From: Klebsiella phage KpLz-2_45
Sequence record: MN871446.1
Reading direction: 5' to 3' (one strand)
Length of the DNA stretch: 64,000 nt
The translations under genes and the position numbers were made by a program. This document shows, piece by piece, positions 592-61,146 of this stretch. The notes beneath the pieces were generated by a model. It saw only the letters and a program-made list of their open reading frames with translations, had not been told where the DNA came from and searched no databases. Position 1 is the stretch's first letter; each line of letters starts with the position of its first letter.

Positions 592-3036
592 TTATTCGAA
601 AGGCAATAAAACCGACGTCGGGAAAAACTCATCGAGTAACAGCGGCTCAGTGAACCCCAAGAGTCTATCTGGCATAACTTGCCACAACTGAACACGCGGG
701 ATCTTCCTTACCCATATACCGTCGAGAGTCGTTTCCCCTAAAACAATCTCAGGATCACGTTCGATCTTTTTCACCCAGAGACCGTCCAGATTTCGAACGA
801 GGACTTCCGTTTGAAGCAGGTCGTCGGCTTCCGGCGGGTAAACCCAAAGACCGGGGAGCGCCAATGTTTTAATGATGTCGTCAAGAGGACGGTAATCGAC
901 ATGGTACAGCCACAACCCATTGAGCTCGGTGTTCTTCACGTCAATAGTGATATCTTCTGTCAGACTTCCTTTAAAGCGTACCTCGGCAATCGGGATTCGA
1001 TGAATCGTTTTGATCGCTGTATCGCAAAGTAATCCGATACCCCAATCCAGTCGGTAATAGTAGTTAGCGTAGATCTCTTTAACATTGAGATCAATCGCTT
1101 TAAACGACGGGATCACCGTACTACTTTTTCCTTTCTGTTTTTGACCAATGACCTCTACACGCGAAGGCAGCTGAACTTTACCGTACCCCTTACTTTCCAC
1201 TTTACCGTAACGGACTGCCAGGTTGTCTAAAACGATACCCGGAGCAGCGATCGTTTTGTGGACGTACTGAACGCCGTAAGAAGAAAGTTGAGTCATGATC
1301 CCGATCATTGCGCTGTGAATATCCGAGATACTGATTGTCGACCGGAGATCTGAACCTGTCGCAATAGTGAATATACTCAGTGCAAAATCTGACCATTCCT
1401 GCGGGGTTGACATGGACAATGTCCAGTTCTTTTCTTTAAACCACGTCGCGTATGTTGTCGGTTGATCGACCAGCGTACAAGGTTCGTCACAATAGAATTT
1501 CCGACAGAGGACTTCCCACTCACCACGTTGGTAAAGATCTTCCATTGACGTATACATCATCCGGTGGGCTGACAAGTTCCCTTGTATAGCAACTGCCGTG
1601 GAATAAAAGGCTTCCGTAGAGATGATCGTACTTACTGAGGTCGTCTCTGTCATTGCCACTTGTATTCCGAGTTCTGTCACATACGTTTTCTGCGTTGCTT
1701 TACGCAGCTCTGAGAACGTTGGACTTGGAATACGTTGCGCGAAAAAAGCGGTCAGCTTAGGAATGTCCGTGAGCGTTATTTCAAACTGCTGCATCACCGC
1801 GTAGACCCAAAGTACCAATGCCTCCTTCACTGACATTGACATCGCTTCCTGCGAAATAGGGTCAGTTAAGATAATATTGGCAGTGTACTTTCCGTGAGAG
1901 GCGAGGTAGATCCATTCCGTTAATAACGTATCGGTCAGCTTCCGCGGCATGGCATCAGACTGGTCGACCATCACCGATTCGAGTACCTTCGTGGGGAGTA
2001 TGTTTGTGATCGCGTTTTTGACCATATTCGGCACGGTAGATTTTTGCGTCTCAAGATAATCGGCGTTATCTTTTGCGGAGTCGACTTCATTCTCTAACGC
2101 GTCTTCGATCGTGATATACTGAATACCGCTGACAGATTCAGCCAACGTATTCTGCGGGATCTTAGCCACGGTACCGGTGCTGTAAATCCCTTCGCCGATA
2201 CTTGACGTATCTTGTTGTAATTCGTACGCGGTGAGCGGGATACGTCGCTCCGTCAGGATGTTCGCGATAAGATCAACAAAGGTACTGGTTTTCCCGGCGT
2301 GCGCCTCGATGTATTCAATGTTACGGTACAGGTACAGCGCCTGTTTGAGGCTCGTGTAGTCTTTGAACTTATTGAGTCGACCATGCGACCCCAGATAACA
2401 CCAAAGATGATAACTGTGCACTTGGGGCGTTCTTACGTACCGATTTCGGATATTAATAATTTCGCCAGGAAGGTGAGAAAACATTAAACCGAAAAAGGTC
2501 GCCGGATATTGCAGTTGTACACGAGCAGGGAGCGGCATGTACCAGCGGTTGGTAAAATTATTAATCCACTCTTGCAGGTCGCTGATTAAATACACCTCTT
2601 GTGACTCAACGTGCTCTGAATCGTAATAGAGGATTTCCCAACTCTTCGCGCTCAGAATCGTCTCCATGGGAACCGGGTTGAGAATCCCACGTATCAGCGT
2701 TTCTTGATTAGGGTAACGGGAGAGTAGATTCTGATAATAACTTGTCCCGTACGCGTAGGCTTTACGCGTGGCGCGGTGTAATAGTAAGTTATCATATGTG
2801 AACTCGATCGTCTCGAGTGTATCTAAAGAAACAACCGTCATTGGGGTATCGCTGGCATGGTATTGTCCTGCCAGATTCATATAGTACGCCCATGTGCTAG
2901 GTGCACTTGGGTCGACGTTATACCCGATAAGTGAAAGGTATTCGTTACGCATCGTGGCGGCGGCAGGAAATTTAATCGTCAATGTCTGTGCCAATGCCAT
3001 AACGCTATCTAAATATAACTTCTGCGTGGTATCCAC
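592..3036 (-). CDS. large hypothetical (probably virion) protein, 814 aa, C-terminal LxGLW repeats
   Basis: Long ORF. The C-terminal 100 aa contain four copies of L-x-G-L/I-W-V/L (LNGLWLY, LPGLWVY, LDGLWVK, LDGIWVR). No catalytic motif recognised. Confidence 0.8.
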   Translation of the reverse strand: MDTTQKLYLDSVMALAQTLTIKFPAAATMRNEYLSLIGYNVDPSAPSTWAYYMNLAGQYHASDTPMTVVSLDTLETIEFTYDNLLLHRATRKAYAYGTSYYQNLLSRYPNQETLIRGILNPVPMETILSAKSWEILYYDSEHVESQEVYLISDLQEWINNFTNRWYMPLPARVQLQYPATFFGLMFSHLPGEIINIRNRYVRTPQVHSYHLWCYLGSHGRLNKFKDYTSLKQALYLYRNIEYIEAHAGKTSTFVDLIANILTERRIPLTAYELQQDTSSIGEGIYSTGTVAKIPQNTLAESVSGIQYITIEDALENEVDSAKDNADYLETQKSTVPNMVKNAITNILPTKVLESVMVDQSDAMPRKLTDTLLTEWIYLASHGKYTANIILTDPISQEAMSMSVKEALVLWVYAVMQQFEITLTDIPKLTAFFAQRIPSPTFSELRKATQKTYVTELGIQVAMTETTSVSTIISTEAFYSTAVAIQGNLSAHRMMYTSMEDLYQRGEWEVLCRKFYCDEPCTLVDQPTTYATWFKEKNWTLSMSTPQEWSDFALSIFTIATGSDLRSTISISDIHSAMIGIMTQLSSYGVQYVHKTIAAPGIVLDNLAVRYGKVESKGYGKVQLPSRVEVIGQKQKGKSSTVIPSFKAIDLNVKEIYANYYYRLDWGIGLLCDTAIKTIHRIPIAEVRFKGSLTEDITIDVKNTELNGLWLYHVDYRPLDDIIKTLALPGLWVYPPEADDLLQTEVLVRNLDGLWVKKIERDPEIVLGETTLDGIWVRKIPRVQLWQVMPDRLLGFTEPLLLDEFFPTSVLLPFE

Positions 3037-3100: not shown

Positions 3101-5899
3101 ATGAATAGTTACGAAAAGAAAACGGTGAATCCTACCGGGATCAAAGTTTCCAGTCGTCCACAGGATTGGCTCCAACGCACCCCTTCGGCTACGGCAATTA
3201 TGTCGAAACTGGTTCAGGATGCGGTACATCGTACGACTACACCTGGAAATGGTGTCGATGTTCCCGACCCAACGATTTTCGACCGTCTCGTCAGTCGTCG
3301 CGCCAGAAAGAACCTGGACGCAGAAACAATCATCTCTTTAGCGCCCGACATTAAATTGATTAAACAGATGATTGTTTCCACTACCCTTTCTCCGGTCGAT
3401 ATGACCCAAGGAGAGTTAGGATTTAAAACCGAGGCGTCAGAGATCCCGCCAAGCGTCCTCAATCAAGTCACAGAGGTCATACGGGATCATTTTGAGTCAT
3501 ACTACCCCTTACGCGATAAACTCCCTGAGATCATCGGAGAGGCGTTATTTGAAACAGGTGCGTGGGTCGGTGTAATTGTCCCGGAAGCTGTTATCGATGA
3601 CATCATCAACCTTCGCGAAGTCGGCAGTTATCTGGCCACGGAAAGTTTCAACGAGAAACTGAAAACGCATTTCGTTGACGGAACCTTAAAATCTGTCGGC
3701 ATCTTAGGTGACCCAGGAATTACCGATCAGGAAATCCGTGATGCGAATAAAGGTAAAAAGAACATTCGCAGTAGTGCACCGGCACCGTCTTTAGAAAGCA
3801 TGTTCTCCATGCCGGTTATGAACCCTAATCAGGTTCGTATTAATGACAGTGCCACCATCACCGATAACCTCGGAATTATGGGTTTGAGCCATATCCGTAA
3901 CCAGATTAATGAAGAGCGTTTGAGAAACAAATACCGCTACGGACGTAGCGGAGCAGGGATGGAGGCGTACCGGTCAAGAAACGGTCATAACAACGTCTCG
4001 ACGGTCGCGAGAACGCTTTACAACTCACGGTCTGGTCAAACTAGCGTTAACCCTGTTAAAGTCATTCCTGCGGCCTCAGAAGCCAGCAGAAGCAGTATTG
4101 GTCATCCGCTGGTCATTAAGTGCCCCTCAGAATCGGTGATTCCGTGTTACCCGAAAGGCGATGAGCGAAACCACATCGGTTACGTCATTGTCCTGGATGA
4201 GCTGGGTAACCCGATCAACTTAACCGATGAACTGAACCAGGCGGCCACTAATGGTCAGATCGGTACAATGGGTGCTCAGCAACAACTGGACATGACCTCC
4301 AGTTTAATCCAGCAAACCCGCATTGCGCAGAACGGTATCTGTATGGATACCGACAAAATGGCGGCGGAAGAACGTATTCGCGTCTATAACCAGGTCTTAG
4401 AGGAAAACATCCTCAACCGTATTAAAAACGGTTTGATCGGTCGTAACGTGAAGATGGCCTGGAACGAAGATATCATGCGTATCATGATGTTCCGTCAGTT
4501 TGCGAACCAACGTACTAACCTCGTCTTTGTCCCTGCTGAACAAGTCGCGTATTTCGCTTACGACTACGACAGTAACGGGATGGGGAAATCGTTGCTTGAT
4601 GACATCAAACAGGTCTCTGCACTGCGAGCCATGACCACCTTCGCTAACTTTATGGCGGGCGTGAAGAATGCGGTAGGACGAACCAAAGTAACGATGAACA
4701 TCGACCCGCGTACACCTGACCCCGAGAAAGCTTATGCGATCTTGATTGATGAGTATCAACGAATGACCAGCACCGTTACTCCTACGGATGTCAGTTCTTC
4801 GGCGGAAATGTTCCGCGTACTCAGAATGATGGGGACGACGATTGAGGTACAGGGTAACCCACGTATCCCGAATACCACTGTGGACATTAATGAGTACCAA
4901 TCTCAGAAACAGATCATTGATGAGAACTTTACCAATGATCTTCGTCGTCAACAGTATATGGGTCTCTTTGTTACACCGGCGATGGTGGACATGACTGACG
5001 AGGCAGACTTTGCTATCACCCGTTGGACGTCTAACCAGCTCTACGCTAAACGCATCATGATGATTCAAGACGACACCTGTAAGCACGGGAAGAAGCTCGT
5101 CAGATCATACGTGAACTCGGACGGTGTTTTAATCGGACGTATTCAGAAGATCTTTGCCGAGAACAACGATAAGCTCCCTGAAGAATATCGTCTCGATAAA
5201 GAAAGTCAAATCCCGGAAGATTTAAAATACCTCGATGCGATCGACGCTTATTTTGACGCATTCTACCTTGAGTTACCTCGTCCGGAAAATAACCGGATTG
5301 AGAAACAAAAAGAAGAATTCGACAAAGTGAAAGATATGATTGACGACATTGTCGACTGTTACATCTCGAGCGAACTTCTGGGGGCATTTGCACCGGAAGA
5401 TCAATCTAAGATCGATATGCTCAGGGCACACATGACAGCGTACCTGAAACGCGACTGGTTACAGAGTCAAGGCTTCGATATGGGCTTTGTGAAGATCCTG
5501 TCGCCGGTCACGGAAGAAGATCCATCGCTGGATATGATCAAAGTCTTTACTACCGACATTGTCAATATGCTGCATAACTTTGGCGATTTCAGTTCGGCAT
5601 TGGCGGCCACCCGTGACGCGTTACTGAAACGGATGGAAGTAGAGAACCCGAAACAACATGAGATCCTTACAGCCAATAATGACGCTGGCGGCGGTTGGGA
5701 CAATGGCAGTTCCGGAAACGATTGGGACAACAACGATTCCGGTGGTGGCGACGCCTTTGGCGGTGGCGACTTCGGTTCCTTCGAAGATACCGAGGAAGAT
5801 CCTTTCGCCACGGACGAGTTAGAAGGAGGAGGAGAAACTTCCACTGAAGAGGAAGCAGATCCTTTCGCTACACCAGAAGAAACAAACGGACCTGAATAA
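3101..5899 (+). CDS. large virion protein, 932 aa, acidic Gly/Asp-rich C-terminal tail with EDPFAT repeats (portal protein candidate)
   Basis: Long ORF with SD AAGGA 8 nt upstream of ATG. The C-terminal 80 aa are a GGG/D/E low-complexity tail with two EDPFAT copies. Size matches ~900-aa portal proteins of phiKZ-like phages. The function call is inference only. Confidence 0.8.
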   Translation: MNSYEKKTVNPTGIKVSSRPQDWLQRTPSATAIMSKLVQDAVHRTTTPGNGVDVPDPTIFDRLVSRRARKNLDAETIISLAPDIKLIKQMIVSTTLSPVDMTQGELGFKTEASEIPPSVLNQVTEVIRDHFESYYPLRDKLPEIIGEALFETGAWVGVIVPEAVIDDIINLREVGSYLATESFNEKLKTHFVDGTLKSVGILGDPGITDQEIRDANKGKKNIRSSAPAPSLESMFSMPVMNPNQVRINDSATITDNLGIMGLSHIRNQINEERLRNKYRYGRSGAGMEAYRSRNGHNNVSTVARTLYNSRSGQTSVNPVKVIPAASEASRSSIGHPLVIKCPSESVIPCYPKGDERNHIGYVIVLDELGNPINLTDELNQAATNGQIGTMGAQQQLDMTSSLIQQTRIAQNGICMDTDKMAAEERIRVYNQVLEENILNRIKNGLIGRNVKMAWNEDIMRIMMFRQFANQRTNLVFVPAEQVAYFAYDYDSNGMGKSLLDDIKQVSALRAMTTFANFMAGVKNAVGRTKVTMNIDPRTPDPEKAYAILIDEYQRMTSTVTPTDVSSSAEMFRVLRMMGTTIEVQGNPRIPNTTVDINEYQSQKQIIDENFTNDLRRQQYMGLFVTPAMVDMTDEADFAITRWTSNQLYAKRIMMIQDDTCKHGKKLVRSYVNSDGVLIGRIQKIFAENNDKLPEEYRLDKESQIPEDLKYLDAIDAYFDAFYLELPRPENNRIEKQKEEFDKVKDMIDDIVDCYISSELLGAFAPEDQSKIDMLRAHMTAYLKRDWLQSQGFDMGFVKILSPVTEEDPSLDMIKVFTTDIVNMLHNFGDFSSALAATRDALLKRMEVENPKQHEILTANNDAGGGWDNGSSGNDWDNNDSGGGDAFGGGDFGSFEDTEEDPFATDELEGGGETSTEEEADPFATPEETNGPE

Positions 5900-9873: not shown

Positions 9874-10872
9874 CTATAACACAACCGCGGCCGCGGTCGC
9901 ACCCAACACCGCCTTCTTCGTCAAGAAAGACAGTAACCATTTTCCGGCTTTCATCATAGTCGGTAGAATGGATTTAATAAATTCTCCGCCGGCTTTAATC
10001 CAGGCTGAGACCACTTTCGCTTTCTTCTCTTTATCTTCGCTTTGCTTCCCTTCCTTTAACGACGCCTTTTCCATCTCAAGTTCTTTCAAAGCTGCTTCTC
10101 GGGACGTATGGAACTTAATCCCTAACGGATTGTTTCCCGATATTGCATCTTCGAAAGAAAAGAAGCTTTTAGTCGCTAATAAGCGAAGTCCCTCCTTAAT
10201 TTTGCCGTAGTTTTGAACAGTGACGCCATCGGGCTCGTTAGACGCACGAGAGATATTGACTTTCAATACCTGGTTACCGATGGTATAATAAAGCCCTTCG
10301 ACAAATCGTTCTTTGTCGACAGCACTCACGACAATACCTGACACCTTACTGATTTTACACCCGATATCATCCTGGACAATATCGTGAATGGTTTCTTCAC
10401 GATCAACCAATGACGCTTTAGAAATCCGCATCCCTAAACCCGGGACGCTAATCTCCGACCCTAACGTATCGAAATCGCTTTCGTCTATCAAGAACACCAT
10501 ACGGTATTTGTAATGGTTTCTCGAGCAACGTAGGTCCTCGTCAAAGTGCACCATGCAGTTACCTTTGACAGCATCATAAAGGCCGAAGCTCGCCTCAGCA
10601 TAATTATTCTTCGGGTCGTCAATATTGACCGTATCAGTGCAATAGAGTACGGTAAGGTGGATGATCAAATACCCACGTAACTTTGCCGTTCCGTGAGAAA
10701 ATACAACATTGTCAGTCCCATCGGATTTCTGTACAGCAAGATCGTACCGATAGTTGTTAGTGATCTCCATGGTAACGGATAAATCACAATTCCCTGTACG
10801 GTAATCATTTGCCATCACTAGAAACTCATGGGGCATCTTTTCTTTTCGAGGATTATCTCTCTTATAGACCAT
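9874..10872 (-). CDS. hypothetical protein, 332 aa
   Basis: Long ORF with SD AGGAAG upstream. Confidence 0.75.
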   Translation of the reverse strand: MVYKRDNPRKEKMPHEFLVMANDYRTGNCDLSVTMEITNNYRYDLAVQKSDGTDNVVFSHGTAKLRGYLIIHLTVLYCTDTVNIDDPKNNYAEASFGLYDAVKGNCMVHFDEDLRCSRNHYKYRMVFLIDESDFDTLGSEISVPGLGMRISKASLVDREETIHDIVQDDIGCKISKVSGIVVSAVDKERFVEGLYYTIGNQVLKVNISRASNEPDGVTVQNYGKIKEGLRLLATKSFFSFEDAISGNNPLGIKFHTSREAALKELEMEKASLKEGKQSEDKEKKAKVVSAWIKAGGEFIKSILPTMMKAGKWLLSFLTKKAVLGATAAAVVL

Positions 10873-11066: not shown

Positions 11067-13352
11067 TTAGGACGCAGGAACAACCTGAGTTTCGTTAACG
11101 TCGAGCGCGGTACGCTGTGCGATCGCTTCTTCCAGGTTGACCACGTTGATGACCAGCATGATCGGCAGGAAGTTGAAATAGCGGTAGCGCGGGGTCAGGC
11201 GGATTTCTTTACCGATACGTTGGTTACGGATCATGTTGAAATCAACCAGGTATTCCGGGATGAAGCCCAGAACGCCGTGCTGCAGCGGATGCGGTTCAGA
11301 CTCGTTCGGCAGGATGAAAGTCATGACGATCTTGTCTTTCATACGCAGATCGGAGATACGCGCGATGGTGTAATCGTAACCGATACCCACGGTGCGGTCG
11401 TCGCCGTTGATCTGGATGTACTGCGGCAGACGCATGTCAGTACCGATCGCTACGTGCGGCTTCGGAGAACGGCCAGAGAAGGCAGCTTCCAGAGCAGCGG
11501 TGTAACCGGTCAGCTGATCTGCGGTGTAAACCATTTCGTTGATCTTGGACACGATCAGGCCCTGAATATCGCTCTGTTTTGCAGCAGAGGTCAGGCTGTT
11601 CAGATCGTTCAGAACATCGATGGTCGCTTCGTTGAAGTACGGACGCACGTAATACTGACCAACACCTTCCAGGCCCAGGTTGGACTCGATCGGGTGCGGA
11701 ACGCCAACGCCCAGATAGGACTTCAGGGTGTCTGCGCGGTTCAGCAGGGTGGTTACGGCGTTGTTACGCATCTGGATACGATACGCGGTGGTCAGAGCTT
11801 CCAGGCGCGGATAGGTTTTGTCGTCTTCAACCATGGCCGGTTTAACGATAACCAGCGGCGGCAGAGTCGGGATCATGAAACCTTGTTTCTGTACGTCGGA
11901 GTCAATCAGCAGACCCATTTCCAGCTGGTTGATGTTGGTCAGACGAGCTTCCAGGCTATAGCCTTCGCCTTTCACTTCCAGACCGGACAGTACCGCAGCA
12001 ACGCGCGAATCGGTCAGCGCGATTTCTTTACCGTCTTTGTCGAATACGCGAGCAACGCGCAGAGAACGCAGAGAGGTGTCGCCATTACCGTTTTCAACGT
12101 TCATTTCGCCGTCGATTTTCACGTCCAGCTCAACGCGATAACCCTGATCGAACAGAGAACCGAAGAGTTGGGATTCAGCGCCGTTCACCAGACGAGTCTG
12201 ATCGCCCAGACCGATAGCGGTGTGGAATTTCAGCTGCATCTGACGGAAGTTGTATTCGCGGGTCGCGGTGTACGCAGCGTACTGGTTCTGGTTAACGTCC
12301 AGCGCCAGCAGTTCAGTGGTGCCGCCTTTGGTGACGGAGACCAGCAGTTGTTTCAGGGCAATACGGCTGTCCAGGGAGTCGGTAAAGGTCATGGAACCTT
12401 TTTTCAGACGGGACGGCGTTTGCGCCAGCATCAGCAGGTTGAAGCCTTCGCCATTTTCGCTGAATTTCAGGAAGTTGGTATCGAAGGTGTCTTTACCCTG
12501 TTTCACGGTCTGCGCAGCCAGAACCGACGGGGCGATGAACTGGTCGTCGTTTTCGCCAGACTGGATAACCGGGATCAGCTCGGTGCTGTTGGTTTCCAGA
12601 GTGGTGTAATCCAGCAGGCCCTGCAGGATGTTACGCTTGATGATTTCTTGTTTCTCGCCGCCCAGACCTTCACCGGTCCAGCCTTCCCACACCATGTTAC
12701 GACGGATAGACAGCTGGAAGCCAGCCTGGTCCGGGGTCACGATATAGGTGCGATAGAACAGTTCAGCGAACTCGTGTTGTTTCGCTACGATCATGTTGAT
12801 CGCGTAGGAGTGTTCGCGCCATTTTTCGGTTTCTTTCTCGTCGAAAGATTCCAGAGACGGCAAGGAACCGGCCGGCAGGGTCGCGATGGAACCGTTAGCA
12901 CCCGCAGAAACGAATTCGTTAACACGAACGTCGTTTTCAAAGGACGGAATGCTGTAACCGTCACGGTAGTAAGCACGCGGTGCGTTGTGAGACATCGCCA
13001 GGACAGCAGCTGCTTCAACTGCAACTTCTTTCTGGTGTTCACGCAGTTCTTCACCGCCGTCAACAAAGCCTTCGCCTTCGCCGTCTACTGCATCAGCAGA
13101 TTCGGTGATGGAGCTGATCTGATCGACCGCGTCGTTCAGGGACTCTTTGACCGCTTCCAGGGTGGATTCTACTTCTTCCGGGTTTACGCCCAGTTCACCG
13201 TAGCTTTCCAGCGCAACAGACATGACACCAGCGGCAGCGCCCTGCGGCAGCAGGGTGTGGTTCTTTTCAACGGACTGGCGAACGCTGTCGACCAGTGATT
13301 TAATAGCACCAGCAGCGCCGGCGCCCAGTAGACCTTTTTTAGGACGTGCCAT
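11067..13352 (-). CDS. candidate major capsid protein, 761 aa
   Basis: Size is typical of phiKZ-like MCP (~750 aa). Codon usage is strongly optimised (CTG/GGT/CGT/GAA) unlike its neighbours, producing long spurious antisense ORFs. SD AAAGGAAC upstream and a strong hairpin downstream. No sequence-level verification was possible. Confidence 0.8.
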   Translation of the reverse strand: MARPKKGLLGAGAAGAIKSLVDSVRQSVEKNHTLLPQGAAAGVMSVALESYGELGVNPEEVESTLEAVKESLNDAVDQISSITESADAVDGEGEGFVDGGEELREHQKEVAVEAAAVLAMSHNAPRAYYRDGYSIPSFENDVRVNEFVSAGANGSIATLPAGSLPSLESFDEKETEKWREHSYAINMIVAKQHEFAELFYRTYIVTPDQAGFQLSIRRNMVWEGWTGEGLGGEKQEIIKRNILQGLLDYTTLETNSTELIPVIQSGENDDQFIAPSVLAAQTVKQGKDTFDTNFLKFSENGEGFNLLMLAQTPSRLKKGSMTFTDSLDSRIALKQLLVSVTKGGTTELLALDVNQNQYAAYTATREYNFRQMQLKFHTAIGLGDQTRLVNGAESQLFGSLFDQGYRVELDVKIDGEMNVENGNGDTSLRSLRVARVFDKDGKEIALTDSRVAAVLSGLEVKGEGYSLEARLTNINQLEMGLLIDSDVQKQGFMIPTLPPLVIVKPAMVEDDKTYPRLEALTTAYRIQMRNNAVTTLLNRADTLKSYLGVGVPHPIESNLGLEGVGQYYVRPYFNEATIDVLNDLNSLTSAAKQSDIQGLIVSKINEMVYTADQLTGYTAALEAAFSGRSPKPHVAIGTDMRLPQYIQINGDDRTVGIGYDYTIARISDLRMKDKIVMTFILPNESEPHPLQHGVLGFIPEYLVDFNMIRNQRIGKEIRLTPRYRYFNFLPIMLVINVVNLEEAIAQRTALDVNETQVVPAS

Positions 13353-56081: not shown

Positions 56082-56178
56082 TGTTCCCTTCCGGATTTGA
56101 ACCGGCAACCTCCTGCTAAGCAGTGGGCGGCGCAGTGGCCGCCGATGCAGGCGCTCTACCTAGTTGAGCTACGAGAAC
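56082..56178 (-). pseudogene. tRNA-Ala-like gene with 30-nt insertion in the anticodon loop (disrupted or intron-containing tRNA); no encoded CCA
   Basis: Minus-strand read GTTCTCG-TA-GCTCAACTAGGTAGAGC-G-CCTGC[ATCGGCGGCCACTGCGCCGCCCACTGCTTA]GCAGG-AGGTT-GCCGG-TTCAAAT-CCGGA-AGGGAAC-A. The backbone resembles enterobacterial tRNA-Ala (..AGAGCGCCTGC..GCAGGAGGT..). The insert contains a perfect hairpin GGCGGC-CACTGC-GCCGCC. Confidence 0.5.
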
Positions 56179-56340: not shown

Positions 56341-56796
56341 TTATATCTTTGGTTTCTTATTAGCCTTTTTACAGGCAGCTCTGTAACCGACCGTATCAAA
56401 AATACCATTGATGGAATGTTTAATGATTATACCCTGAGAAAGTCCGGTAAATAACGCGGCATCTCTAATCGTGTCATAGATCCACCCATCAATAACCCAA
56501 CAAGTTCTCCGTTTCACGTCGGCGTAATAATGAACTTCTTTACTATCATGATAATTATCACGATCCGTACCAATAGACAAATGCTCAGGATTACAGCAAC
56601 GGGTGTTATGGCAAGAATGTCTTACTACTTTACCAATTGGCACTGGCCCATAAACTGTAGTGAAGACAAATTTATGAGTTGTCCAATATTTACCGTTCCG
56701 TGTAAACTGGCCGTAACCAGCGCTATTGCAAGATTTATTCCAATTCCAGCAACCGGTTACTTTATCTACCGTTGTATTTTCTTTAATAAATTCCAT
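56341..56796 (-). CDS. HNH homing endonuclease, 151 aa
   Basis: Motif GCWNWNKSCNSAGYGQF...HKFVF...GPVPIGKVVRHSCHNTRCCNPEHLSIGT, the canonical C-W-x-W...G-Y-G...H-x-C-x-N...C-x-N-P-x-H-L HNH signature. It sits between two groups of tRNA genes. Confidence 0.75.
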   Translation of the reverse strand: MEFIKENTTVDKVTGCWNWNKSCNSAGYGQFTRNGKYWTTHKFVFTTVYGPVPIGKVVRHSCHNTRCCNPEHLSIGTDRDNYHDSKEVHYYADVKRRTCWVIDGWIYDTIRDAALFTGLSQGIIIKHSINGIFDTVGYRAACKKANKKPKI

Positions 56797-59739: not shown

Positions 59740-59797
59740 AAATTCCTCAATTAAAAAGTGTCTTCTACATTAAAACGGTTTACCGTAAAAAAGCATA

Positions 59798-59826
59798 GGA
59801 GAGAGGAGGGAATTCCCTCCTCTCTC
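59798..59826 (-). terminator. intrinsic terminator (GGAGAGAGGAGGG-AATT-CCCTCCTCTCTC, then CTATGCTTTTTTACGG on minus strand)
   Basis: Perfect palindromic hairpin centred on GAATTC, with a T6 run on the minus strand. It closes a short minus-strand transcription unit that contains the permuted tRNA-like element. Confidence 0.6.
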
Positions 59827-59992
59827 GATTAATTCATTTATCAAAAAGTGATCTCTTTGAAAAAGAAACTTTTGTGGTAAGAAGGGCGGAGGTAAGGATA
59901 TAACCATCCCCAACACCGCCCATAGCCATTCAGCTATAAACAGAATTTAGCGCGACCTATCTAAGAATAAGATTGGAAGTTTTATTTTATAA

Positions 59993-60087
59993 TCTAGTGC
60001 TCTACCGGCTGAGCTATCTGCCTCCAAGAAACACTCTGTGAATGTGTCCAGGTAGGCAGAGCGGAATTCGAATCCGCGACCTCTAGA
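59993..60087 (-). ncRNA. circularly permuted tRNA-like element: tRNA 3' half (anticodon-stem 3' strand + variable loop AGGTC + T-arm + acceptor 3' strand + A + CC) located upstream of the matching 5' half (acceptor, D-arm, anticodon-stem 5' strand), 27-nt spacer
   Basis: Minus-strand read TCTAG-AGGTC-GCGGA-TTCGAAT-TCCGC-TCTGCCT-A-CC | TGGACACATTCACAGAGTGTTTCTTGG | AGGCAGA-TA-GCTC-AGCCGGTA-GAGC-A-CTAGA. Acceptor strands (AGGCAGA/TCTGCCT) and anticodon-stem strands (CTAGA/TCTAG) are perfectly complementary but in permuted order. Confidence 0.45.
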
Positions 60088-60235
60088 ATTCTTTCCGTAA
60101 AAGAAAGAAAGTTCAGTCCGCTATTTTACTGTTTACTCTTTATCTTTAAGCGTGTGAGGCGATAAGATAAAGTTAACACTAACCATCTGGGTCGCATTAT
60201 GGGTGCATTGATGACTGCGTCTACCAATTCCGCCA

Positions 60236-60276
60236 TTCTCCCATAGTTTGGTGGGAGAAGAAAGAGTCGAACTTCC
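60236..60276 (-). ncRNA. tRNA 3'-end-like minihelix (T-arm GGAAG-TTCGACT-CTTTC + 7-nt acceptor strand + A + CCA) whose acceptor strand pairs with an immediately adjacent downstream segment
   Basis: Minus-strand read GGAAGTTCGACTCTTTC-TTCTCCC-A-CCA-AACTA-TGGGAGAA. No D or anticodon arm is detectable. Confidence 0.3.
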
Positions 60277-60309
60277 AGTGGGGTCATCACACCTGCAACA
60301 CGGACTAAC

Positions 60310-60350
60310 AATAAAGATAAGGTTGGCCTCAATCTTTATTATCAATGGGC
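60310..60350 (-). terminator. intrinsic terminator after gene 60379..61146 (AATAAAGAT-13 nt loop-ATCTTTATT)
   Basis: 9-bp A/T-rich stem whose 3' side is U-rich on the minus strand. Confidence 0.45.
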
Positions 60351-60378
60351 ACTCGTGAGAATACCCATTACTAACACA

Positions 60379-61146
60379 TTAAGCAGTGAAGTTTTTCAGA
60401 ATCACGTTGGTCAGTACTTCGCCGATAGAACCCTGAACAACTTCGGTGCAGTTTGCACGCATACGTGCATTAGTGACTTCAACGATCAGTTCGTCGATAT
60501 CACGCAGTGCGTTGGCTTTCTGCATCGGGGTGCAGGCGCCGGAATAACTTTTACGGGTGAAGCTACCAATTACGACGGTGCTTTCCGATTCTTTCACCTG
60601 TGCAGGGTGGTGGTCGGTAGCCGGCGCCAGGATAACCGGAGTGAGTACTTTCTCGGTTTTCGTCGTGACTTCGTCCGTCACGGTACGGAATCCGTAGGTG
60701 CTGTTGCTATCGCGTTCCCATTGTTTGGACGAATCCAGAGTAGGGGCAGCGGCGATCAGTTTGCGCAGTTCCGCCAGGCGTTTTTCCAGGCCCAGGAGTT
60801 CATCTACCGGCACTCCAGAAACGAGGACTTCGCCTTTGAACATGATGTCTGCTTTTGCGACCTGGTTAGTCAGGGCTTTTTGCAGGCGAAGGTCTTCTGC
60901 CGTGGCGAAATATTCGAAGAGGTACTGCAGCGTTTCGGCAACAGTGGTGATCACTGCCTTGCTGGTACTTTCGCTTTTTTCGATCGCGGCGTTGGCGTCG
61001 TTGTCTTCGTGCAGTTTCAGGGTTTTATCAAACCCGCTGAAATATTCAGCCGATTTATTGAATTTTTTACTGGCGTCTTCGATCAGGACTTGCACTTGTT
61101 TGGTGCGAGTGGGTTCTGCTGCCAATACTTCGTGTAACTTAGCCAT
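60379..61146 (-). CDS. hypothetical protein, 255 aa (codon-optimised, probably abundant)
   Basis: Natural-looking protein sequence, SD AAGGAAA upstream, terminators on both sides. The antisense 260-aa ORF is Phe-rich nonsense. Confidence 0.8.
   Translation of the reverse strand: MAKLHEVLAAEPTRTKQVQVLIEDASKKFNKSAEYFSGFDKTLKLHEDNDANAAIEKSESTSKAVITTVAETLQYLFEYFATAEDLRLQKALTNQVAKADIMFKGEVLVSGVPVDELLGLEKRLAELRKLIAAAPTLDSSKQWERDSNSTYGFRTVTDEVTTKTEKVLTPVILAPATDHHPAQVKESESTVVIGSFTRKSYSGACTPMQKANALRDIDELIVEVTNARMRANCTEVVQGSIGEVLTNVILKNFTA

Follow-up and report, generated by a model that had tools for sequence, protein, structure and literature searches.

More than 250 bacteria and 22 phages encode YrlA RNAs, which are tRNA mimics whose genes lie less than 4 kb from a Ro60/TROVE gene and which carry a GNCGAA(N0-1)G Ro-binding motif near their 5' end (Chen et al. 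2014, PMC4201824). The YrlA of M. smegmatis, which has an acceptor stem of 7 base pairs (bp), has been shown experimentally to be cut by ribonuclease P (RNase P) and to receive a CCA end (PMC4201824), and the literature on this class likens its members to circularly permuted tRNA. Among jumbo phages, TROVE has been reported only for a small part of groups 2 and 3 (Iyer et al. 2021). Here we analyze a locus in a stretch of 64,000 nucleotides (nt), the window, from Klebsiella phage KpLz-2_45 (MN871446.1), a jumbo phage of about 300 kb. In an original prediction, an element at positions 59993..60087 of this window had been read as a circularly permuted tRNA-like gene. We consider it likely that this element is one module (module B) of a two-module non-coding RNA locus whose RNAs are tRNA mimics of YrlA architecture, that the locus belongs to a phage family coupled to the protein family DUF7873, and that it works by the mechanism proposed below.

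The window is 99% identical to the phages KpYy_2_45, KpLz_1_41 and LPKP23 and 87% identical to FBKp24 (Maaswegvirus). Reading its minus strand from 60087 to 59993 confirmed the permuted order of the tRNA halves, and the layout described for the element (3' half, 27-nt spacer, 5' half) matches the sequence exactly. Module B (59993..60087, minus strand), which is supported by its sequence, by an Rfam match to YrlA and by our family model R1, consists of the following parts:

60087-60083, minus strand: anticodon-stem 3' strand, TCTAG
60082-60078, minus strand: variable loop, AGGTC
60077-60061, minus strand: T-arm, GCGGA-TTCGAAT-TCCGC
60060-60054, minus strand: acceptor 3' strand, TCTGCCT
60053-60051, minus strand: A, then CC (ACC)
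60050-60024, minus strand: 27-nt spacer, which prolongs the acceptor stem into a hairpin of about 18 bp; inner motif CAUUCACAGAGUG
60023-60017, minus strand: acceptor 5' strand, AGGCAGA, followed by TA
60014-59999, minus strand: D-arm, GCTC-AGCCGGTA-GAGC, followed by A
59997-59993, minus strand: anticodon-stem 5' strand, CTAGA

A topology scanner that required a T-arm, a closed 7-bp acceptor hairpin, a D-arm and an enclosing 5-bp stem found just two elements on both strands of the 64 kb window, namely module B and a further module (A), which lies 124 nt upstream of it on the minus strand (60287..60211). There was no match in 30 dinucleotide shuffles of the window, and the whole 302 kb genome of the closest relative yielded the same two modules and no others. 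The topology originally claimed, with the 3' half upstream of its matching 5' half and the break at the anticodon end, is thus found both by reading the sequence and by the scanner; module A and a hairpin directly 5' of module B's 3' half had been missed. Module A (60211..60287, minus strand), a Leu-type tRNA mimic according to the scanner, the fold and model R1, is composed as follows:

60287-60283, minus strand: equivalent of the anticodon-stem 3' strand, ATGAC
60282-60277, minus strand: variable loop, CCCACT
60276-60260, minus strand: T-arm, GGAAG-TTCGACT-CTTTC
60259-60253, minus strand: acceptor 3' strand, TTCTCCC
60252, minus strand: A73
60251-60249, minus strand: encoded CCA
60248-60243, minus strand: spacer, AACTAT
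60242-60236, minus strand: acceptor 5' strand, GGGAGAA, followed by TG
60233-60217, minus strand: D-arm, GCGG-AATTGGTAGA-CGC, followed by A
60215-60211, minus strand: equivalent of the anticodon-stem 5' strand, GTCAT

Both modules have an acceptor stem with seven of seven pairs and an equivalent of the anticodon stem with five of five, which bears out the full complementarity claimed for the two stems of module B. The Levitt pair is kept, as G15:C48 in module B and as A15:U48 in module A. RNAfold recovers both modules without constraints as cloverleaves whose acceptor end is closed and whose anticodon end is open, and the folding z-score of the 531-nt intergenic RNA is -7.4. Module A combines a tRNA-Leu-type D-arm with a complete encoded ACCA, and the acceptor loop of module B opens with ACC-U in the window and with ACCA in FBKp24.

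In a sensitive Rfam scan, the best match of module B was YrlA (RF02553; 37.6 bits, E 1.7e-6). The YrlA model aligns with the T-arm, the closed acceptor stem, the D-arm and the enclosing stem, and its outer Ro-binding helices are left unaligned. Although the score is below the gathering score of 69 bits, phage modules that lie directly beside TROVE genes reach only 35-42 bits with the same model, so that this cut-off is uninformative for phage members. Since the YrlA literature itself draws the comparison with permuted tRNA, the topology of the element is the published hallmark of the YrlA class, and the statement that permuted tRNA-like genes are confined to eukaryotes and archaea has to be given up.

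The protein gene that precedes the two modules on the same strand (60379..61146, minus strand, 255 aa) encodes a DUF7873 protein (Pfam PF25283, E 2.7e-72). We found 232 homologues of it, many on contigs of 100-370 kb, and examined 79 DUF7873 loci from viral contigs with protein identities of 33-50%, searching an equal amount of sequence on each side of the gene and counting modules only if they lay outside any tRNA called by ARAGORN. At least one module was present in 70 of these 79 loci; 91 modules lay downstream on the same strand, one upstream and none antisense. Their median distance was 151 nt past the DUF7873 stop codon, and in the window the T-arms of modules A and B start 102 nt and 301 nt past it, respectively. 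About 25 loci had a tandem pair; in 17 of 18 cases its first module was of the Leu type, the same order as in the window. In the distant syntenic contig L006, whose DUF7873 protein is 37% identical, the gene is followed by a module of its own with wholly different stem sequences and an acceptor loop starting with C-CCA. Searches with tblastn located DUF7873 in 73 named phage records, and in each of the six named phages that were tested (Gordonia Ronaldo, Arthrobacter Racecar, Vibrio D497, Rhizobium RHph_TM30, Ralstonia phiRSL1 and Pseudanabaena Pam2) the unannotated interval behind DUF7873 contained one or two modules.

The reciprocal test started from 36 non-tRNA modules for whose earlier detection only the RNA pattern had been used. 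DUF7873 was located upstream on the same strand of 12 of them, TROVE was adjacent to 10, neither gene was within the available flanks of 14, and none had both. Eight of the ten NCCA-type modules in this set were DUF7873-linked and none was TROVE-linked; an early, weak association of the NCCA type with the absence of TROVE (p ~0.04, biased sample) was later explained by this linkage. Phages therefore have two classes of permuted tRNA-like RNA: Ro-linked YrlA with short closed loops and without CCA, and a DUF7873-linked class with a 7-bp acceptor stem and an encoded N-CCA, often with a Leu-type module followed by a second one.

Structural support for the family cannot come from the T and acceptor stems, because the scanner required these to be perfect; the enclosing stem was not required in the family scan. 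It is perfect in 49 of 90 modules, with 42 different sequences, compared to a mean of 4.9 and a maximum of 13 in 2000 permutations of the partners. The family has 76 distinct acceptor strands, and its stems covary. The acceptor loop starts with N-CCA in 53 of the 90 modules, where 1.2 would be expected, and in 38 of the 90 a U directly precedes the acceptor 5' strand. Where the acceptor stem is extended into a long hairpin like that of module B, the inner motif CAUUC-N-AGAGUG recurs, in 11 members.

We also built a covariance model (R1), trained only on the modules of other phages and limited to the T and acceptor pairs because MAFFT could not align the variable D-loop end. In the window as well as in the whole genome, its two highest scores go to module B (43.8 bits, E 1.3e-15) and module A (40.6 bits, E 2.6e-14), and tandem-tRNA junctions reach 29 bits at most. 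As R1 scores Ro-linked YrlA modules as high as DUF7873-linked ones, the two classes share one core architecture.

Past the enclosing stem, the trailer motif ATCGT is present at 22 of 67 loci against a background of 4.6%, which corresponds to an approximately seven-fold enrichment. This motif could be a protein-binding or processing site. It is seen in the form (U)AUAUCGUUA, 3-20 nt past the enclosing stem, in loci such as L250, L261, L274 and L277, and the window has only a weak version of it, AAUCUUAUUC, at about 59975..59965.

Several loci of the family have features of their own. Directly after the module of L006, at 5640..5711 on the plus strand (4640..4711 in L284), is a tRNA-like gene with a 6-nt anticodon loop, which ARAGORN reports as 'tRNA-???(ct)', and similar 'tRNA-???' calls are found in L256, L275 and L287. 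Locus L095 (14.3 kb) has a single DUF7873 gene (12385-13140), and downstream of it, on the same strand, are five closed-acceptor modules, at 12181-12239, 10386-10442, 3984-4038, 3838-3894 and 951-1006 (minus strand), an array which suggests that modules can be amplified. In viral contigs of 110-356 kb (L022, L067, L080, L170, L172, L208), there are closed-acceptor modules whose available flanks contain no TROVE and no DUF7873 gene, and several of these border large phage tRNA arrays; these modules may have further partner proteins, or there may simply be too little flank.

The arrangement is conserved in FBKp24, to which the region from the promoter through module B (60378..59993) is 96-98% identical with zero indels. 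Directly after module B, identity falls to 79-84%, and at third codon positions the three genes that flank the locus are 71, 46 and 31% identical. The modules themselves have few substitutions, which lie in loops or change an A-U pair to G-U. We read this pattern as strong purifying selection on the locus, and the contrast between 96-98% identity in the locus and 31-71% at third codon positions argues that the modules are not decaying pseudogenes. A blastn search for distant relatives of the RNA locus in phage genomes returned only the same clade of Klebsiella jumbo phages, and a single pattern scan of metagenomes gave four GC-rich matches, all unrelated.

The modules are embedded in further predicted structures, which, together with the end of the locus, are:

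60314..60345, minus strand: AU-rich hairpin and putative promoter upstream of module A, 96.7% conserved relative to FBKp24, with a promoter annotated at the equivalent FBKp24 position
60283..60313, minus strand: 5' strand of module A's long closing stem, with UAGUCCGUG (GUCCG at 60305), from the consensus fold of four phages
60177..60210, minus strand: 3' strand of the closing stem of module A, from the consensus fold, in a region that is 96.7% conserved
60138..60172, minus strand: inter-module hairpin CUUUAUCUU...AAGAUAAAG, from the folds, invariant across four aligned phages
60115..60123, minus strand: 5' strand of the closing helix of module B, UAGCGGACU, from the minimum free energy and centroid folds
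60089..60109, minus strand: hairpin H1, directly 5' of module B, from the folds; its loop contains 'UUA', the anticodon annotated in relatives
59948..59957, minus strand: 3' strand of the closing helix of module B, GGUC-G-CGCUA, from the fold, overlapping the duplication scar described below
59799..59826, minus strand: intrinsic terminator closing the locus, a 12-bp stem followed by a T-run

In the consensus fold of the four phages, the closing stem of module A has one compensatory change (U.G to A-U, columns 24/128). The block ATAGGTCGCGCT in the 3' strand of module B's closing helix is invariant inside a flank that is otherwise 84% identical, and the terminator has compensatory changes in FBKp24. 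Of the two terminators that had been proposed to flank the locus, the one at 59826..59799 is confirmed, whereas 60310..60350 is an AU-rich hairpin without a T-run and was passed over by the terminator scan. A further hairpin, located between module B and the terminator (59884..59921, minus strand, GGGCGG...CCGCCC), is still paired in FBKp24 despite multiple changes (GGGUGGCGG...CCGUCGCCC) and so appears to be a conserved structure in a fast-evolving stretch.

Several other explanations of the locus have to be weighed. One is a classical Ro-dependent YrlA that borrows the Rsr (Ro60) protein of the host; it could draw on YrlA being the best Rfam match, on the equally high R1 scores of Ro-linked modules, and on the GUCCG in the closing stem of module A, which recalls the Ro-contact motif GGUCCGA. 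However, this GUCCG is all that 60378..59790 offers, the GNCGAA(N)G motif itself being absent from it. No Ro60/TROVE gene lies within 4 kb of the modules, Pfam detects no TROVE domain among the long open reading frames (ORFs) of the whole phage genome, and a TROVE hidden Markov model built from 12 phage Ro proteins, which themselves score 500-744 bits as controls, found nothing in six frames of the genome and the window (best E 2.8). Moreover, linkage to TROVE and to DUF7873 was mutually exclusive in the RNA-ascertained loci. A Ro-linked YrlA is thus not what we take the locus to encode, and dependence on host Rsr is quite improbable. A true permuted tRNA gene, whose ends would be joined (perhaps with the help of DUF7873 or of host RtcB) and whose acceptor loop would be opened to give a decoding tRNA, would account for the presence of every cloverleaf element, for the encoded CCA and processable-looking acceptor loop, and for the existence of a dedicated linked protein. 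Yet when all joins of trailer and leader were enumerated, none restored a canonical anticodon loop in either module: no join of module A had U33, and those of module B gave only the anticodons AGA or AUA, starting with A34. Across the family, U is at the would-be position 33 in only 23 of 49 trailers and hence not conserved, D-arm types and acceptor stems vary with no matching anticodon, and leader and trailer pair as continuous imperfect helices which lengthen the stem in the manner of Y RNAs. Among the 75 long ORFs (330-800 aa) of the genome, Pfam found no RtcB, Rnl1/Rnl2 or TROVE domain, and DUF7873, whose AlphaFold2 model has a pLDDT of 90 and an uninformative fold match, is without similarity to ligases or endonucleases. 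Because a canonical anticodon loop cannot be rebuilt, we regard the modules as anticodon-less tRNA look-alikes and not as genes for decoding tRNAs; the functional permuted gene with a mature product of about 75 nt, as first envisaged, has very little chance of being correct.

The same locus has been annotated in a collinear way in GenBank, where the relatives LPKP23, FBKp24 and Centimanus have a 'tRNA-Stop/Sup(tta)' at the equivalent of 60134..60051 (minus strand) of the window. ARAGORN and tRNAscan both call this tRNA(tta) in the relatives, with 80-85 nt (L001 2167-2250, L002 2172-2251, L003 2167-2250). In the ARAGORN drawing, however, hairpin H1 is fused to the T-arm and acceptor 3' strand of module B, thus reusing the T-arm of the module, with only five of seven acceptor pairs and a degenerate D-arm; the suppressor calls have four to five of seven acceptor pairs and C37, and ARAGORN makes no such call in the window; a suppressor tRNA(UUA) is therefore rejected as, very likely, a misannotation. 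A decayed tandem duplication of a tRNA, the other collinear reading, is suggested by a scar resembling the start of the 3' half that follows the 5' half of module B, its alignment being equalled in 25 of 5000 shuffles; a duplication scar for module A and upstream remnants of a 5' half were not significant. From the scar after module B it follows that the permuted order probably arose by tandem duplication. Decay, which had been raised as the alternative to a permuted gene, is thus retained as a probable origin of the order but not as the present state, given purifying selection, the conservation of the locus amid fast-evolving flanks and the same arrangement in unrelated phages with different sequences. 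As accounts of what the locus is today, decay and the collinear suppressor are scarcely credible, and the modules are not recent copies of the phage's own tRNAs. The main alternative is that the modules form a cis-acting 3' tRNA-like structure of the DUF7873 mRNA, on which RNase P would leave a CCA-ended half with a protective or regulatory role, as in plant viruses. This fits the position of the modules, on the same strand and directly past the DUF7873 stop codon, as well as the enrichment of an encoded CCA, and the terminator scan found no clear terminator between the DUF7873 gene and module A. Against it, the authors of the FBKp24 genome predicted a promoter in this very interval, a conserved hairpin follows the DUF7873 stop codon, some modules are 600-1000 nt or more downstream or separated from the gene by a tRNA (L006/L284, L226), and Ro-linked YrlA with the same core acts in trans (PMC4201824). 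We therefore consider a cis-acting element unlikely.

For a locus encoding two YrlA-like tRNA mimics coupled to DUF7873, we propose the following mechanism. Transcription of the intergenic region would either start at a promoter of its own or run on from the DUF7873 gene, and would end at the terminator at 59826..59799; each module would fold into a tRNA-like L-shape. The 7-bp acceptor stem of module A carries an open loop of 10 nt (ACCA-AACUAU), and position -1 is U. Since the same features make the YrlA of M. smegmatis a substrate of RNase P, we expect the host enzyme to cut module A 5' of G60242, with subsequent trimming to the encoded CCA. The product would be a nicked two-piece tRNA-like RNA with a free CCA end. 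Module B, with its long closed acceptor hairpin, would probably stay uncut.

Leucylation of module A is plausible, because it carries A73, A15:U48, G18G19 and a tRNA-Leu D-loop, all the known determinants of the E. coli leucyl-tRNA synthetase (LeuRS), and because tRNA-Leu variants lacking an anticodon arm and a long variable arm are still charged by this enzyme (PMC9976931). The RNA and DUF7873 would act as a ribonucleoprotein (RNP) that engages tRNA-handling proteins, the RNA serving as a decoy or competitor for host factors that target tRNA, or as a dedicated acceptor. By analogy with the anticodon-less tRNA-like domain of YrlA, which has been proposed as a competitive inhibitor of anticodon nuclease (Hughes et al. 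2020), a decoy against tRNA-targeting host factors is one reasonable function in a phage. Transcription, cleavage, charging, binding by DUF7873 and a biological role are steps that we infer from these features. Tentatively, we suggest that DUF7873 and the N-CCA mimics form a previously unrecognized phage RNP, opened by RNase P, aminoacylated and used outside decoding, for instance as a decoy or sponge for immune systems or toxins that target tRNA, or as an aminoacyl donor or acceptor dedicated to DUF7873. It is conceivable, with similar reservation, that this RNP is distinct from Ro-Y RNA, extends over phages of Actinobacteria, Proteobacteria and Cyanobacteria, and has a full leucine identity in its first module.

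Concerning the surroundings of the locus, the genes nearest to the modules are those of DUF7873, of a 295-aa protein without a Pfam match and of an NMT1-like protein. An ordinary cluster of seven tRNA genes, all with an encoded CCA, lies 3 kb away on the same strand, and is all that Rfam matches at gathering thresholds. The seventh tRNA-like gene of this cluster (56082..56178, minus strand, 97 nt) scores 38.9 bits with the Rfam tRNA model and is not called by ARAGORN; it has a hairpin-forming insertion of about 23 nt in the anticodon arm (CCUGC-AUCGGCGGCCACUGCGCCGCCCA-CUGCUUA-GCAGG), and FBKp24 has tRNA-Gln and tRNA-Tyr at the matching position. An HNH homing-endonuclease gene (56341..56796, minus strand; PF13392, E 1.8e-11) is located inside the phage tRNA cluster. 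A Pfam screen of the whole genome of KpYy_2_45 showed chimallin, the PhiKZ major capsid protein and phiKZ internal head proteins, as well as a Tad3-like Thoeris inhibitor domain and enzymes of nicotinamide adenine dinucleotide (NAD) salvage (NAPRTase and an AAA_28 NadR-like domain), a content that points to a nucleus-forming jumbo phage with anti-defense and NAD-related genes.

The architecture of these RNAs is already known from YrlA. In open-access papers and preprints we found no description of the linkage to DUF7873, of a subclass with encoded CCA, of a tandem with the Leu-type module first, or of a spread over phages of three bacterial phyla, so that this widespread phage RNA family has apparently not been described before. 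The tRNA mimicry of YrlA has so far been tied to Ro60; phages hold a second, larger-looking branch of the same architecture, which is coupled to another conserved protein and distinguished by an encoded CCA end. As a defined two-gene cassette in culturable phages (Klebsiella FBKp24 and relatives, Ralstonia phiRSL1, Gordonia Ronaldo, Arthrobacter Racecar, and Vibrio and Rhizobium phages), it offers a testable handle on the purpose of anticodon-less tRNA mimics and bears on the interplay of phages with defense systems that target tRNA. It also gives the Pfam family DUF7873 a context and corrects the 'suppressor tRNA' annotations in GenBank, which could mislead analyses of stop-codon recoding in jumbo phages.

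Compared to known systems, the modules are closest to YrlA, with which they share the T-arm, the loop-closed acceptor stem, the D-arm and an equivalent of the anticodon stem that runs into the closing stem; the anticodon loop is missing and the tertiary pairs of tRNA are kept. They differ from it in having no TROVE gene and no GNCGAA(N)G motif, in being linked to DUF7873 instead, in the N-CCA that is genomically encoded in most DUF7873-linked members, and in often forming a tandem pair with the Leu-type module first.

The permuted tRNA genes of Cyanidioschyzon merolae and of some green algae and archaea likewise have the 3' half upstream of the 5' half on one strand, with an intervening sequence between the acceptor strands that RNase P and 3' processing can remove. 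These genes, however, yield decoding tRNAs by way of a bulge-helix-bulge, a splicing endonuclease and ligase, and a circular intermediate, whereas the anticodon loop of the phage modules cannot be rebuilt and their flanks form a long closing stem.

Two-piece transfer-messenger RNA (tmRNA), encoded by permuted ssrA, resembles the modules in its permuted order, in which the acceptor 5' strand comes downstream of the T-arm, the acceptor 3' strand and CCA, as well as in an encoded CCA that is exposed by processing. A partial Rfam match to beta_tmRNA over the T-arm and acceptor reached 24.8 bits against a gathering score of 84, and ARAGORN, which detects permuted tmRNA, reported no tmRNA in the window. 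Unlike tmRNA, the phage modules have a canonical D-arm and G3:C70 in both cases, not G3:U70, and are without a tag reading frame or pseudoknots.

Finally, viral 3' tRNA-like structures such as that of TYMV, and tRNA-like substrates of RNase P such as mascRNA, likewise imitate tRNA: they attract host enzymes that act on tRNA, among them RNase P, the CCA-adding enzyme and aminoacyl-tRNA synthetases, and take no part in decoding. They are collinear or pseudoknotted and belong to RNA viruses or eukaryotic long non-coding RNAs, whereas the modules described here are permuted cloverleaves paired with a dedicated phage protein gene.

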